NCBI GenBank assembly: GCA_048885525.1
Contig: JBHLLP010000005.1
Span: forward strand, 78,345 to 119,644
DNA length: 41,300 nt
DNA from: Candidatus Hermodarchaeota archaeon
Lineage (GTDB): Archaea; Asgardarchaeota; Lokiarchaeia; Sigyniarchaeales; SOKP01
Direction of reading: 5' to 3'
The notes below the pieces were generated by a model. That model was not told the origin of the DNA. It worked only from the letters and a program-made list of their open reading frames with translations, and searched no databases. Of the stretch, positions 3,968-30,958 are shown in pieces. The position numbers were made by a program, and so were the translations under genes. Numbering within the stretch: the first letter of the stretch is position 1; every line of letters starts with the position of its first letter.

Positions 3968-3990
3968 TTTGAAGAGTGAAAGAATAAACT

Positions 3991-4521
3991 ATGTATCTAC
4001 TATTTCATATTGCATTACCATTAATATTGATGGAAATTCCACGAATTAAGCAATTAAGAATCAATAAACTTTCTTTAATAATAGGCTCGATACTTCCAGA
4101 TGTAATTGATAAACCATTAATTTTTTTTGGCTTGGGAAATGGAAGAAATATTTCTCATAATCTATTTTTTATTATATTAAGCTTCTTAATTCTTCATTTT
4201 TCAATTAAAAGAAAGACATCTATCTCTTTCCCATTTCTAATTGGATTAATTTTTCATATAATTCTAGATTTACCTGAAGTTCCATTATTTTACCCTTTTA
4301 TACCTTATGAATTTCCATACATTGATAATCCCATATTATTTTGGTTTAATAAATTATGGACAGATCCATTAGTCTTTATTACAGAATTTATTGGATTATT
4401 CTTCATTGTTTTTATTATAATCAATAATAAATTATACCATACTAAAGATATTAGAAATTATTTAGAAGGAATATATCAACCATCAATTCAGAATTCTAAC
4501 GAAAAGGAAATTGATATCTAA
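3991..4521 (+). CDS. Membrane-bound metal-dependent hydrolase (YdjM/DUF457-like)
   Basis: N-terminal H, GSILPDVID, RNISHN, HIILD and PLFYP motifs; several TM segments. Confidence 0.75.
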   Translation: MYLLFHIALPLILMEIPRIKQLRINKLSLIIGSILPDVIDKPLIFFGLGNGRNISHNLFFIILSFLILHFSIKRKTSISFPFLIGLIFHIILDLPEVPLFYPFIPYEFPYIDNPILFWFNKLWTDPLVFITEFIGLFFIVFIIINNKLYHTKDIRNYLEGIYQPSIQNSNEKEIDI

Positions 4522-26782: not shown

Positions 26783-29143
26783 ATGAATGAACGAATAGAG
26801 AAGTTACGCAAGCAAAGTCGTGAAGCTATTCCTTATATTTCTTTAGAGCGAGCATCACTAATTACTAAATTTTATAAAAGTGGTTCTGCTAATAAATTTT
26901 CTGCTCCAGTTGCCAGAGCAAAGGCATTTGAATACATTTTGGAAAATAAAAAGATTTGTATTAATGAGGGAGAATTAATAGTAGGAGAACGTGGTCCTGA
27001 ACCGAAAGCGACACCTACTTATCCCGAAGTTTGTTGTCATAGTTTAAATGATTTAGATATCTTGAACACACGTGATAAAATTTCTTTTAAGGTATCTGAA
27101 GATACAAGACAAAAGACAGCAGATAAAATTATTCCCTTTTGGAAAGGAACATCTATTCGTGATAAGATTTTTTCTAAAGTTGATAATGAGTGGATTGATG
27201 CATATGAAGCAGGGATTTTTACAGAATTTATGGAACAAAGAGCACCTGGACATACAGTTGCCGGAAAAAACATATGGCATAAGGGATTCTTAGATTTTAA
27301 GCAAGAAATAAAAGTAAGTATTGAAAGTTTAGATTTTTACAATGATCCTGAAGCATATAATAAGAGAGAACAGTTAATCGCAATGAATATCGCTGCAGAT
27401 GCAATTATTGCTTTTGCTGAACGCCATTCTCAAGAAGCTAAACAACGGGCTAGCCAAGAACTAGATCCAATAAGGAAAACTGAGTTAGAGAAGATCTCAG
27501 AGATATGTTCTCACGTTCCTGCGCATGTTCCACGGACTTTTTGGGAGGCACTTCAACATTATTGGTTCATTCATTTAGGTGTTATTACTGAATATAATAC
27601 ATGGGACTCATTCAATCCAGGGCGTTTAGACCAGCATCTGTATCCCTTCTATAAAGAGGATATAGCAAATGGAATATTGACTAAGGAAGATGCGATAGAA
27701 TTACTTCAAGCTTTTTGGATCAAGTTCAATAATCAACCAGCTCCTCCTAAAGTGGGAGTTACTGCTGAAGAAAGCAGTACATATACCGATTTTTGCAATA
27801 TTAACATTGGTGGACTTAAAGAGGATGGTTTTGATGGAGTCAATGAAATGTCCTACATGCTATTAGATGTAATTGAAGAAATGAGGATAGTCCAGCCAAG
27901 TAGTAATGTTCAAATTAGTTCAAAAACTCCAGATAGATTCTTAAAAAGAGCCCTTGAAATTGTTAAAACTGGTTTTGGACAACCGTCTGTTTTCAATTGC
28001 GATGCAGTAATTCAAGAATTGACTAGGCAAGGTAAGTCCATATTAGATGCCCGAAACGGTGGAACAAGTGGTTGTATTGAGTCTGGTGCTTTTGGAAAAG
28101 AAGCATATATATTAACTGGATATTTTAATTTAGTGAAAATTTTGGAAGTTACGCTTCATAATGGTTTTGATACTCTCACTAAGAAACAGATTGGATTGAA
28201 GACTGGTGATCCTATATCTTTTGAGACTTTTGATGATTTCTTTGAAACCTATAAAAAACAGGTTATCCATTTTGTAGATATTAAGATTAAGGGGAATCAA
28301 ATAATTGAAAGAATTTGGGCAGAAAATCCAGCACCTTTTTTATCCATTTTGATTGATGATTGTATCAAGAATAGAAAGGATTATAATGATGGAGGGGCAA
28401 AATATAATACATCTTATATTCAAATTGTAGGAATGGGAAGTATTACTGATTGTTTAGCTTCTTTGAAGTATAACGTATTTGATAAGAAAATCATCTCAAT
28501 GGAAGATCTAATTAAAGCCTTAGACAATAATTTTAACGGATATGAAGTTTTACATCAGAAATTACTCTATAAAACTCCTAAATATGGGAATGATGATAAT
28601 TATGCTGATAAAATAACCACTCAAGTTTTTGAAATTGTTTATAATGCTATTGATAATCGCCCTAACACTAAAGGCGGTGTACACCGGATAAATCTACTTC
28701 CTACAACAGTGCATGTTTACTTTGGTCAGGTGACAGGTGCTACACCAGATGGACGTAAAGCATATACTCCCTTATCAGAAGGTATTTCTCCAGTTCAAGG
28801 AATGGATATTAATGGTCCAACGGCGGTTATTAAATCAGCAGGTAAAATAGATCATCTCAGGACAGGAGGAACTTTACTAAATCAAAAATTTGCACCTCAG
28901 TTTTTTTCAGAAGAAAATAAGATTAATAAATTAGCTCATTTAATCAGAGCATATTTTGAAATGGATGGTCATCATATACAATTTAATGTAGTATCAGTGG
29001 ATACATTACGAGCTGCACAGAAAAATCCCGAAAAATATAGAGACTTAATTGTACGAGTTGCTGGATATAGTGATTATTTTGTGAACCTAGGTCTCGATTT
29101 ACAGGATGAAATTATTAGAAGAACCGAGCAAATCGCAATATAA
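26783..29143 (+). CDS. hypD: Glycyl radical enzyme, trans-4-hydroxy-L-proline dehydratase
   Basis: RVAGYS Gly loop and SGCIE Cys loop; HypD-type segments PTYPEVCCH, FTEFMEQRAPGHTV, WDSF, KFNNQPAPPKVG, ESSTYTDF, KEAYILTGY and LPTT.H. Confidence 0.88.
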   Translation: MNERIEKLRKQSREAIPYISLERASLITKFYKSGSANKFSAPVARAKAFEYILENKKICINEGELIVGERGPEPKATPTYPEVCCHSLNDLDILNTRDKISFKVSEDTRQKTADKIIPFWKGTSIRDKIFSKVDNEWIDAYEAGIFTEFMEQRAPGHTVAGKNIWHKGFLDFKQEIKVSIESLDFYNDPEAYNKREQLIAMNIAADAIIAFAERHSQEAKQRASQELDPIRKTELEKISEICSHVPAHVPRTFWEALQHYWFIHLGVITEYNTWDSFNPGRLDQHLYPFYKEDIANGILTKEDAIELLQAFWIKFNNQPAPPKVGVTAEESSTYTDFCNINIGGLKEDGFDGVNEMSYMLLDVIEEMRIVQPSSNVQISSKTPDRFLKRALEIVKTGFGQPSVFNCDAVIQELTRQGKSILDARNGGTSGCIESGAFGKEAYILTGYFNLVKILEVTLHNGFDTLTKKQIGLKTGDPISFETFDDFFETYKKQVIHFVDIKIKGNQIIERIWAENPAPFLSILIDDCIKNRKDYNDGGAKYNTSYIQIVGMGSITDCLASLKYNVFDKKIISMEDLIKALDNNFNGYEVLHQKLLYKTPKYGNDDNYADKITTQVFEIVYNAIDNRPNTKGGVHRINLLPTTVHVYFGQVTGATPDGRKAYTPLSEGISPVQGMDINGPTAVIKSAGKIDHLRTGGTLLNQKFAPQFFSEENKINKLAHLIRAYFEMDGHHIQFNVVSVDTLRAAQKNPEKYRDLIVRVAGYSDYFVNLGLDLQDEIIRRTEQIAI

Positions 29144-29232
29144 CACTTCATTTTTTGAATTCTATTTATATTTGTTTAAATTCAAAAAATCCAATATTAA
29201 AGCCTAGGAGGTCATTACTCTCATTTTGATTT

Positions 29233-29307
29233 ATTTATGTACCTATTCAGTACATAAATTTATAAATGATTATTACTTATTAATCTATAGGTACATGATC
29301 GGTACAT
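29233..29307. promoter_or_regulatory. Putative operator array (four GTAC boxes) flanking a TATA box upstream of the GTPase-RHH gene
   Basis: ATTTATGTAC-N7-GTACATAAAT (29233-29259); TTTATAAA at 29259-29266; GGTACAT at 29290 and 29301; SD GAGGTG at 29331-29336. Confidence 0.6.
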
Positions 29308-29344
29308 ATAATTATTTATAAAATAAAAAAGAGGTGCAAAGATA

Positions 29345-30115
29345 ATGAGTAAAGAGAAGTATAAAGACATATTTAAGATTATAGTTCTTGGGGCTCCAGG
29401 AGTAGGTAAAACTGCTTTAATTGAACAATTTTCCGATAAATCTCTCCATAAAGATGCGGCTCCTAGAGCTGGTTTGAATTTATTTATTAAGAACGTTAAC
29501 ATTGATGGTAATGACTATAAACTTCAGTTCTGGGATATTATTGCCAATGACAAATTTGGTTCAATTCAAACATTATACTATACAGGGGCATCTGCTGTTC
29601 TTTACGTATTTGATTTGTCTAGACCAGAAACTTTTGATTATTTTCAAACACGTTTTAAAGAAATTTGGATTCAGGTTAAAAAAGATAAATGCCCTGTCCT
29701 TATAATTGGAAATAAACTTGATTTAGTTGAGCACCCAGAGGTTATTGATAGAGAAAAATTTCGTAATTTTGTTAGAAAAGAAGGTTTAATGGGTTATATT
29801 GAATTAACTTCAAAAAATAATATTGATGGTTTACTAAAACAACTTCCTATAATTATTCAAAAAGCTTTAAAAAAAAGTATTCAAGTCAAATTTTTAGTTA
29901 CTAGTAAAGAACTAAAAGAAATTAAAAGATCTGCTCGACGCTCTCATCAAACACAATCAGAATTTATTCGTACAGCAATATGGGAAAAAATAAGATTGAT
30001 TAATAAACCTTCTAAGATTGACAATTCAATAAAAAATGAAGAAATAATAGAAAAAAAATTACGGTTAGATGAATTGAAAAAAATTCGAGAATTATTAGAA
30101 AGATCAAAAGAGTGA
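29345..30115 (+). CDS. Rab-like GTPase domain fused to a C-terminal ribbon-helix-helix domain
   Basis: GAPGVGKT, LQFWDI, YYTGA, VFDLS and GNKLD motifs; C-terminal IQVKFLVTSKELKEIKRSARRSHQTQSEFIRTAIWEKI. Confidence 0.8.
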   Translation: MSKEKYKDIFKIIVLGAPGVGKTALIEQFSDKSLHKDAAPRAGLNLFIKNVNIDGNDYKLQFWDIIANDKFGSIQTLYYTGASAVLYVFDLSRPETFDYFQTRFKEIWIQVKKDKCPVLIIGNKLDLVEHPEVIDREKFRNFVRKEGLMGYIELTSKNNIDGLLKQLPIIIQKALKKSIQVKFLVTSKELKEIKRSARRSHQTQSEFIRTAIWEKIRLINKPSKIDNSIKNEEIIEKKLRLDELKKIRELLERSKE

Positions 30116-30187
30116 AAAAGTTGTGGAGTAGCTAATAATATTTTATATATCTAAATTAAGTCTCGTTCTAAATTATATGAAATTGCT

Positions 30188-30958
30188 TTAAAAGATAAAG
30201 GGAATAAGCGCTTTGCGATTTTTTGGATAATCAGGAAATGATTTTATATACCATAAGTGATTAGAGCGTGCTCTAGGTGCTAAATTTGCGAAAGTCCACA
30301 TAGCGAAAATTAAACCCGGAAAACTCCATGTCATAATTGCCCATCCAATCCATTCTGTTATTTCTCCAAAATAACTAGGACAACTTACATATTTGAACAT
30401 TCCTCCATAAGGAATTTTATATTCAGTTTCCCGAGGTTTTCGTAAATGTCGAATAATGTAATCTGAATGTAGATTAATAATAAATCCACAAATGAAAATT
30501 ATTATCCCTATTATAAAAATCGGATTAAAAAACCAATTTACAGGATATAACGGGGAAAATGTATTGATCCATCTAGCTTGTAAATAAGTGTTGATTCCAT
30601 TAAATGTAATACCCATTAAAATAATTGAAATTGGCATGGGGTGTTTGCCGCGAATTAACAAGGGATATATGAAAGTACGGTGAGAGTAATGTATCATCCA
30701 TATGAATAGAAATATTAAGGGCATTAATTCAGTTTTCCGTTCTCCAATAAGATAATAAATTAAATAAATAATAACAGTTGGTAATTCCATTGTAATCCAA
30801 CCTAATTTATTATTATTTATAGCAGGGCCCCATTTTTTATTAATATGTTGGCCATAGCCGGCCGTGATAAATAATAAAACTATGAAGAAAATTATTGAAG
30901 AGAAGCCAAAACTTATTAGAAATATGTTAAAGATTAGATATTCAGCCATTCTATCCAC
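30188..30958 (-). CDS. Steroid 5-alpha-reductase (SRD5A/DET2)-like membrane NADPH reductase
   Basis: GYG, W..MELP, HYSHR..IYP, INLHSD....LRKP, YKIP.GG.F.YVSCP.YFGEI.EW.GWA, NLAPRA...H.WY and YPKNRKALIPFIF motifs. Confidence 0.88.
   Translation of the reverse strand: MDRMAEYLIFNIFLISFGFSSIIFFIVLLFITAGYGQHINKKWGPAINNNKLGWITMELPTVIIYLIYYLIGERKTELMPLIFLFIWMIHYSHRTFIYPLLIRGKHPMPISIILMGITFNGINTYLQARWINTFSPLYPVNWFFNPIFIIGIIIFICGFIINLHSDYIIRHLRKPRETEYKIPYGGMFKYVSCPSYFGEITEWIGWAIMTWSFPGLIFAMWTFANLAPRARSNHLWYIKSFPDYPKNRKALIPFIF

Follow-up and report, generated by a model that had tools for sequence, protein, structure and literature searches.

We propose that a gene in the 41,300-nt stretch of Asgard archaeal DNA analyzed here (hereafter the window, meaning this whole stretch; coordinates are window positions unless a locus is prefixed) is a dedicated autorepressor, in other words a self-repressing DNA-binding protein that carries a Rab-like domain as an add-on, and we consider this reading likely to be correct. 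The gene is an open reading frame (ORF) on the + strand at 29345..30115, and its translation, the 256-aa protein P0001, comprises a Rab-like G domain, a ribbon-helix-helix (RHH) domain and a tail helix, in that order. Sequence-specific DNA binding and autoregulation are very likely, because a conserved operator lies at the gene's own promoter; as this operator is found at no other promoter in the genome, the gene looks like a self-regulator and not like a regulator of other genes. A first-pass annotation, made from the sequence alone, had named the product a candidate GTP-binding transcription factor. The DNA-binding part of that name is supported, in the form of the RHH domain and of the conserved operator at its own promoter, while the part that made GTP/GDP the signal finds no support here.

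The putative control region consists of two operators on either side of a predicted archaeal TATA box. Operator O1 (TATGTAC-N7-GTACATA, 29236..29256) is palindromic, spans 21 bp, contains GTAC cores at 29239 and 29250, and ends 3 nt before the TATA box TTTATAAA (29259..29266, + strand), which its position and consensus suggest to be the promoter. Operator O2 (TAGGTAC-N7-GTACATA, 29288..29308) has its GTAC cores at 29291 and 29302 and covers the predicted transcription start. Within each operator, the two GTAC cores are therefore 11 bp apart, which is one helical turn. This O1-TATA-O2 layout is retained in all 22 orthologous promoters, with the TATA box between the two operators in 22/22 loci, while the flanks diverge: mean column identity over the 22 loci is 0.965 for O1 and 0.89 for O2, against 0.60-0.65 for the flanks. 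The spacing of the elements is conserved as well, with an O1-to-TATA distance of 20 nt in 21/22 loci and an O1-O2 spacing of 52 nt in 15/22 (range 49-54).

The operator stands out in the genome as a whole. The pattern GTAC-N7-GTAC occurs twice in the window, where 0.06 occurrences are expected, and nine times in the whole 3.58-Mb genome. When the genome was scored with a position weight matrix (PWM) built from 44 sites, O1 was the top site (30.9 bits) and O2 the second (28.0 bits), with the next site at 18.9 bits. A search of the genome for a regulon, using the box-pair pattern with 2 mismatches, all GTAC-Nk-GTAC spacings and the 21-bp PWM, returned nothing beyond O1 and O2; an excess of GTAC-Nk-GTAC at spacing 17 resembles ordinary coding sequence. 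The tetranucleotide GTAC itself is twofold short in this genome (G000), with 4937 occurrences against about 9640 expected from base composition, which makes the cluster of four cores at 29239-29305 stand out even more. In this respect the transcription-factor reading of the first-pass annotation went too far, considering that the operator is present only at the gene's own promoter.

The domain predicted to read these sites is the RHH domain at residues 178-219 (29876..30001, + strand), which was delimited from Pfam hits, a dimer model and invariant residues. It comprises the strand QVKFLV (residues 180-185), helix A (187-199) and helix B (204-219), and the full strand-helix-helix pattern, QVKFLV ... 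SHQTQSEFIRTAIWEKI, covers residues 180-216. When residues 170-256 are searched alone, they reach 27.0 bits against NikA-like (PF21983; cut-off 27) and 20.6 bits against RHH_1 (PF01402; cut-off 20.5). Among 29 C-termini from the family, NikA-like is hit by 29/29 (best 2.8e-8), DUF6290 by 29/29 (best 3.2e-7) and RHH_1 by 17/29, and Q180, K182, L184, Q202, Q204, S205, F207, I208 and R209 are invariant in 25 sequences. Searches of the C-terminus against solved structures, with the single sequence and with a profile, gave no significant match. In the AlphaFold2 (AF2) model of the full-length monomer, the C-terminus has a low predicted local distance difference test (pLDDT) score and the strand is unformed, which is uninformative for the RHH; such low confidence is what would be expected of an obligate dimer. 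We also modeled residues 172-256 as a homodimer, which gave an interface score (ipSAE) of 0.47 (three runs, 0.46-0.47), against 0.00 for the best control. The ipSAE mark used here is reached by 20/30 proteins solved as one-chain pairs and by 1/23 solved as single chains. At least 86% of contacts agree between runs, the partner pLDDT is at least 68, and the contacts are antiparallel ribbon pairs (180:184, 182:182, 183:181) centered on K182, together with self-packing of helix B. The C-terminal 80 residues are thus modeled as an RHH module that forms a classic intertwined dimer, in agreement with the C-terminal RHH that the first-pass annotation had proposed.

The RHH domain is followed by an amphipathic tail helix (L-x-L-x-E-L-K-K-I-R-E-L-L-E; residues 236-253, 30050..30103, + strand), which was recognized by its conservation. 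Pairwise identity across the family is 72% in the RHH and 67-69% in the tail helix, compared with 60% in the G domain and 28-31% in the spacer between the RHH and the tail helix. The tail helix is also present in the fusions to leucine-rich-repeat (LRR) domains described below and lies outside the predicted dimer interface, and it may hold dimers together.

Our main reason for believing that the RHH itself reads the boxes is that ribbon and operator covary. The same C-terminal module is found fused to LRR domains (61% identity over 83 residues), and also exists without any N-terminal domain. GTAC-N7-GTAC boxes occur in the same promoter layout before the LRR-RHH genes L024, L025, L026 and L037, and the same boxes precede the RHH genes that have no N-terminal domain (L031, L039, L052 and L053), as well as the gene of an RHH-first small protein (L033). 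In L035, which belongs to a sister family, five GTAC cores are found at exact 11-bp phase against the TATA box. Overall, boxes lie within 300 nt of the gene in 32/33 assessable loci with a Q-[VI]-K-F ribbon. Paralogues with the ribbon F-I-K-x-M are instead preceded by phased TGATCA repeats, and those with the ribbon L-I-K-x-L by phased GGxxCAT repeats; GTAC-N7-GTAC was found in 0/12 of these other-ribbon paralogues. A tree of the RHH modules sets only the RHH-first small proteins apart (98/98 support) and gives no resolved order among the Ras-type, LRR-type and N-domain-less modules. L033 and L035 group with the RHH-first proteins in this tree, yet they have the GTAC core and a Q-x-K ribbon, which indicates that the operator core tracks the ribbon residues and not overall relatedness. 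No RHH-module paralogue was found in the window's own genome.

Several further features were seen among these relatives. The small RHH paralogues L038 and L040-L049, from the same GTDB family, fall into two classes of 119-140 aa with 3-5 phased repeats just after their own TATA box, and constitute a natural specificity series for RHH ribbon-DNA recognition. At the LRR-RHH loci, the GTAC operator-promoter first drives an ORF of about 45-56 aa that starts with M-[AT]-Q-M-L (L024:2827-2994; L025 at about 2790-2935; L037 at strand coordinates of about 1640-1780). This small ORF overlaps or abuts the start of the LRR-RHH gene, and a CGRC motif stands at its end in 2/3 cases. One genome contains a broken second LRR-RHH copy (L027 / L051; G227:C6, about 144078-144239), whose RHH and tail helix are in different frames and which has no GTAC boxes; an intact LRR-RHH copy is present elsewhere in that genome. 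Finally, a motif E-L-K-x-x-I-P-[SA]-H-x-N-G-x-Y-L-E-K-P-x-E-E-E, followed by a charged helix, accompanies the RHH in several classes, namely the 317-aa Ras class, LRR fusions and stand-alone forms (P0051-P0058, P0065-P0068, P0071, L031, L039). It also follows the RHH in the small RHH-first paralogues (L038-L049), and is absent from the 256-aa class to which P0001 belongs.

The N-terminal part of P0001 is a Rab-like G domain at residues 9-165 (29369..29839, + strand), an assignment that draws on Pfam Ras, a Rab2B match, Foldseek, AF2 and counts at motif positions. Pfam Ras (PF00071) matches residues 11-160 at 2.9e-28 (98.9 bits, cut-off 21.6). In PDB searches, the closest solved relatives by sequence and fold are Rab2, Rab12, Rab10 and Rab8: Rab2B is a HMMER sequence match at 5e-24, and Foldseek finds Rab10, Rab1 and Rab8 at template modeling (TM) scores of 0.75-0.82 by target, with a probability of 1.00 to Rabs. 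The AF2 monomer has pLDDT values of 80-90 across the G domain, and pairwise identity of this domain across the family is 60-64%. All motifs quoted by the first-pass annotation are present in the ORF. These are G1 GAPGVGKT (residues 16-23, 29390-29413, + strand), APRAG in switch I, the degenerate switch II WDIIAN (63-68, 29531-29548, + strand), G4 NKLD (123-126, 29711-29722, + strand), ELTSK (153-157) and the QVKFLV pattern of the RHH; a YYxGA motif stands after switch II. G1, G4 and the G5 Ser are thus intact. In the HMMER alignment to Rab-2B, R41 takes the position of the switch-I Thr, A67 that of the DxxG Gly and N68 that of the catalytic Gln.

We compared these positions across 25 aligned homologues, which bore out the degeneracy of the switch motifs and extended it to the family. 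The switch-I Thr position is occupied by K in 21, T in 2, R in 1 and I in 1; the DxxG Gly position by A, D, N, H or S, and by G in none; and the catalytic Gln position by N, D or E. The nucleotide-contact residues are largely kept (K22 25/25, T23 23/25, N123 24/25, D126 24/25, S156 25/25), with the Mg-binding P-loop Thr replaced by K, Y or V in some family members. Loss of the switch thus appears to be a family-wide trait and not a peculiarity of the P0001 copy. Judging from the kept G1, G4 and G5, the G domain probably still binds guanine nucleotide; as the switch-I Thr, the DxxG Gly and the catalytic Gln are absent, the alignment indicates that it cannot be a canonical GTP/GDP spring. A C-terminal Cys motif for prenylation is absent: the protein ends ...LLERSKE and has no Cys beyond residue 115. 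The window's genome has 66 Ras-family matches, among which P0001 ranks 46th by score, and WDxxG[QE] is retained in 40/45 of the best Ras-family paralogues. Two neighboring Ras-family ORFs of 528-530 aa (G000:C29:33069-33560 and C29:34795-35283), which have the P-loop GDHEVGKT and no recognizable WDxxG, are among only five cases without WDxxG in these 45.

The combination of a Ras-family G domain with an RHH is an undescribed architecture, and it is not unique to this assembly. A protein search returned about 60 full-length homologues of P0001 with 55-83% identity, in addition to a 317-aa subfamily, and the Ras-RHH fusion was found at 22 genomic loci in public genomes, with proteins 41-83% identical to P0001. 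No Ras+RHH combination outside the P0001 family was seen among the 150 best hits in 1.84 billion representative proteins, and none of the other Ras proteins in this search whose match ran beyond residue 200 had an RHH. Full-text literature searches, including papers on Asgard GTPases, found no description of a Ras-RHH fusion.

The surroundings of the gene show that its N-terminal domain varies at one and the same locus. Directly upstream is the gene of a 786-aa glycyl-radical enzyme (26783-29143), which occupies this position in 22/27 loci and is 78-91% identical, far above the conservation of the RHH gene; no GTAC operator precedes it in the window. Downstream, a steroid-reductase-like membrane-protein gene lies convergently on the other strand in most of the 27 loci. 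The LRR-RHH genes L024 and L025 occupy the same position, between the glycyl-radical enzyme gene and the opposite-strand steroid-reductase-like gene, and L052 and L053, which have no N-terminal domain, follow the conserved end of the glycyl-radical enzyme gene. Considering that a Ras domain, an LRR domain or no N-terminal domain can be found at one locus behind the same operators, the G domain is an exchangeable add-on. The gene context also disposes of two other identities. A type II antitoxin was rejected, as there is no adjacent co-transcribed toxin gene and the neighbors are the glycyl-radical enzyme gene and the convergent steroid-reductase-like gene. A ParR/ParG-type partition adaptor was rejected as well: no gene for a partition NTPase (ParA, ParM, TubZ) is found nearby in the window, chromosomal synteny is conserved, and the fused NTPase is Rab-like and dispensable.

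To determine the distribution of the module, we sampled 400 genomes across the phylum. It is present in 49/134 genomes of the window's GTDB family and in the single genome (1/1) of a sister family, and in 0/265 elsewhere; within the window's genus, it is present in 34/53. The open frames in this sample are Ras-type (253-279 and 323-356 aa), LRR-type (421-455 aa) and short classes, and no genome of the sample has both a Ras-type and an LRR-type copy. Submitter labels on some homologues (Thor-, Hod-, Odin- and Hermodarchaeota) conflict with this narrow GTDB spread, are also at odds with the high identity of the neighboring genes, and were not relied on. With such a distribution, the suggestion of the first-pass annotation that the gene links the Asgard GTPase expansion to transcription does not hold for the expansion as a whole. 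This phylum-wide distribution, the swap of N-terminal domains at one locus and the covariation of ribbon and operator across paralogous classes are the new additions of the present analysis.

A mechanism for the proposed autorepressor can be sketched from the geometry of the sites and the known behavior of RHH proteins and archaeal promoters. Two RHH dimers would sit on each operator, as in Arc or CopG, and the invariant, outward-facing ribbon residues Q180 and K182 would recognize the palindromic GTAC core. Contacts between dimers that bridge the two operators may be made possible by the tail helix and by an O1-O2 spacing of 52 bp, or five turns. Occupancy of O1, over the TFB-recognition element (BRE) position, and of O2, over the start site, would block TBP/TFB and RNA polymerase, and the protein would thereby hold its own level constant. 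We take the G domain to be an exchangeable module for partner binding or oligomerization; that it pulls the protein off the operator, or stabilizes it there, is a speculation. The domain most likely binds nucleotide without switching, as its motifs suggest, and we are doubtful that it gates DNA binding.

Several observations weigh against the autorepressor reading. With full-length P0001 as the query, the RHH-clan Pfam hits fall just below their cut-offs, and the dimer model may echo the abundantly solved RHH dimers, so that it gives likeness and not proof. In L034, which encodes a 357-aa Ras-linker-RHH protein and is the exception among the assessable loci, the sole box lies 940 nt upstream, before the preceding dehydrogenase gene. 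That the effect is repression and not activation is suggested by the site positions alone, and a sole visible target in the regulator itself gives the circuit no evident cellular purpose. Moreover, the geometry of the operator, a palindrome of 21 bp whose half-sites are 11 bp apart, is also compatible with a helix-turn-helix (HTH) dimer encoded elsewhere, in which case the RHH would be only a dimerization or partner module and another factor would bind the GTAC palindromes. As far as geometry goes, this alternative is countered only by the covariation of ribbon and operator: the boxes track the RHH module across unrelated N-terminal domains and into the sister family, and the repeat core shifts when the ribbon residues shift. 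The 4-5 direct cores at 9-11-bp phase in L035 and L043-L047 furthermore suit stacked RHH dimers and not a single HTH dimer, and, as the operator is nowhere else in the genome, a separate factor would need to be dedicated to one gene. We consider a separate factor very improbable.

Other explanations accept that the RHH binds the boxes and differ in the consequence. The protein could be a nucleotide-sensing transcription factor, in which bound GTP/GDP or the GTP level decides whether an RHH tetramer occupies O1/O2, so that guanine-nucleotide status or a partner resembling a guanine nucleotide exchange factor (GEF) or a GTPase-activating protein (GAP) would set transcription. Speaking for this are the constraint on the base- and phosphate-binding residues listed above, the confident Rab-like fold and family-wide identity of the G domain, and its tie to the DNA-binding domain through a short helix. 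There is also precedent: in type Ia ParA of P1, a P-loop NTPase, operator binding depends on the nucleotide state, and in the RHH regulators NikR and PutA a fused sensor domain acts as the gate. However, the residues of the gamma-phosphate relay are gone in the 25 members (the switch-I Thr being kept in two), even the Mg-binding P-loop Thr is lost in some, and at orthologous loci operators and RHH persist beside an LRR domain or without any N-terminal domain. Nucleotide sensing thus cannot be essential to the core function, and we regard it as an unlikely, though not far-fetched, explanation. An autoactivator or dual regulator, which at O1 would recruit TBP/TFB in the manner of Ptr2-type activators and occupy O2 only at high concentration, seems improbable to us. 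The better conservation of O1 than of O2 and the fixed O1-TATA distance, as if the protein touched the pre-initiation complex, would fit such a role, but O1 ends so close to the TATA box that it overlaps the BRE position instead of lying upstream of the BRE, O2 covers the predicted start site, and known RHH proteins that act at their own promoter nearly always repress it. Highly improbable, finally, is a DNA tether like ParR, ParG or SegB, with the RHH marking one chromosomal site for positioning or segregation instead of controlling a gene, and the fused NTPase or the tail helix coupling the phased-repeat site to a cellular structure. Phased 11-bp repeats flanking a core promoter do resemble parC/ParR of plasmid R1, L035 has five phased cores, the conserved tail helix is outside the dimer interface, and an NTPase is attached. 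Yet this is a chromosomal locus with conserved metabolic neighbors and not a mobile element, it has four cores only, no motor gene adjoins it in the window, and the fused NTPase is a switch-less Rab-like domain and not a motor of the ParA, ParM or TubZ type, with an LRR domain or nothing in its place at orthologous loci.

RHH autoregulators with an accessory domain are a known kind; what is new is the Ras-type G domain. Arc/Mnt of phage P22 and CopG of plasmid pMV158 are small RHH dimers that insert a two-stranded ribbon into the major groove, with two dimers on an operator of about 21 bp whose subsites are one helical turn apart at their own promoter, as is predicted here. P0001 shares with them the strand, the helix, the S-E-F-I-R-x-A pattern, the RHH_1 and NikA-like hits and the predicted dimer interface. 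It differs in domain makeup, as a Rab-like domain of 170 residues precedes its RHH and a conserved tail helix comes after it, in its archaeal promoter (TATA/BRE), where one operator lies on each side of the TATA box, and in that its C-terminus has no significant sequence match to any solved RHH. NikR (nickel), MetJ (S-adenosylmethionine) and PutA (proline dehydrogenase) likewise combine an RHH with a small-molecule- or partner-binding domain and regulate their own locus. In P0001, the partner is a Ras-superfamily G domain, which our literature searches did not turn up in any described RHH regulator; the order of the domains is the opposite, the RHH coming last, and the attached domain is swapped for an LRR domain or missing at orthologous loci. 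Type Ia ParA proteins (P1/F) are P-loop NTPases fused to a DNA-binding domain that repress their own operon depending on the bound nucleotide, and ParR of plasmid R1 is an RHH protein whose binding sites, repeats at 11-bp phase, flank its own promoter, and whose C-terminal helix holds an NTPase. Unlike these, P0001 has neither a partition motor nor a plasmid context, it has four cores, and its NTPase part is dispensable at orthologous loci. A stand-alone archaeal RHH protein, CdrS, controls a neighboring cell-division gene (PMC7439475); P0001 is similar in its small archaeal RHH, predicted to regulate transcription from archaeal-promoter sites, and differs in that its only genomic operator is at its own promoter and in that it bears a G domain. 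Eukaryotic Rabs and Asgard Rab-like proteins (e.g., Thor-Rab, PMC10933270) are the best sequence and fold matches and share G1, G4, G5 and YYxGA, while P0001 lacks the switch-I Thr, the DxxG Gly, the catalytic Gln and the C-terminal Cys, and has an RHH in place of the hypervariable tail. The GTPase architectures of MK-D1 listed by Tran et al. 2024 contain roadblock, longin and unknown ("?") domains, without mention of a DNA-binding fusion (PMC10933270).

Ras-family genes number in the dozens in Asgard archaea, with 66 matches in the present genome, and for almost none of them is an output known. Here, one such gene is fused to a predicted DNA-binding domain with a defined, conserved and genome-unique predicted target, so that the locus could show whether a Ras-type domain can control DNA binding, with its natural variants (Ras, Ras plus linker, LRR, no N-terminal domain) as ready-made controls. 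The reach of the finding is limited, as this is a lineage-specific invention of one Lokiarchaeial family, no longer has the canonical switch in its G domain and shows no target but its own gene, and it consequently says little about eukaryogenesis. A bolder view, which we think less likely than not, is that the Rab-like domain binds guanine nucleotide, that its nucleotide- or partner-bound state gates promoter occupancy by the RHH, and that the locus is a plug-in platform. If so, a Ras-family domain would here be wired directly to sequence-specific DNA binding for the first time; Ras-like and LRR domains, the signature parts of ROCO-type signaling, would be fused alternately to one autoregulated DNA-binding core, and the locus would be a natural experiment in how Asgard signaling domains gain transcriptional outputs.

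Some smaller features of the locus complete the description. A Shine-Dalgarno sequence, GAGGTG (29331..29336, + strand), stands 8 nt ahead of the ATG and is kept in orthologous loci. In L055:3140-3160 and in L008 at about 3985-4003, the start is ATA instead of ATG, or has moved upstream into the Shine-Dalgarno region, and gene callers consequently give truncated products of 137-139 aa (P0222, P0223); these had been candidates for stand-alone RHH proteins and were rejected as mis-called Ras-RHH genes. No Rfam match was found in 29100-30250, and among public runs no RNA run covering this stretch was listed. About 40 nt upstream of O1, a second conserved patch at 29194-29226 reads TTAAAG-CCTAGGAG ... 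CTCT and recurs as TTTTAAAGGNTAGGAG-T-run-CTCTTA in most orthologous loci; this patch may serve as another promoter, or as the signal that ends the enzyme gene upstream.

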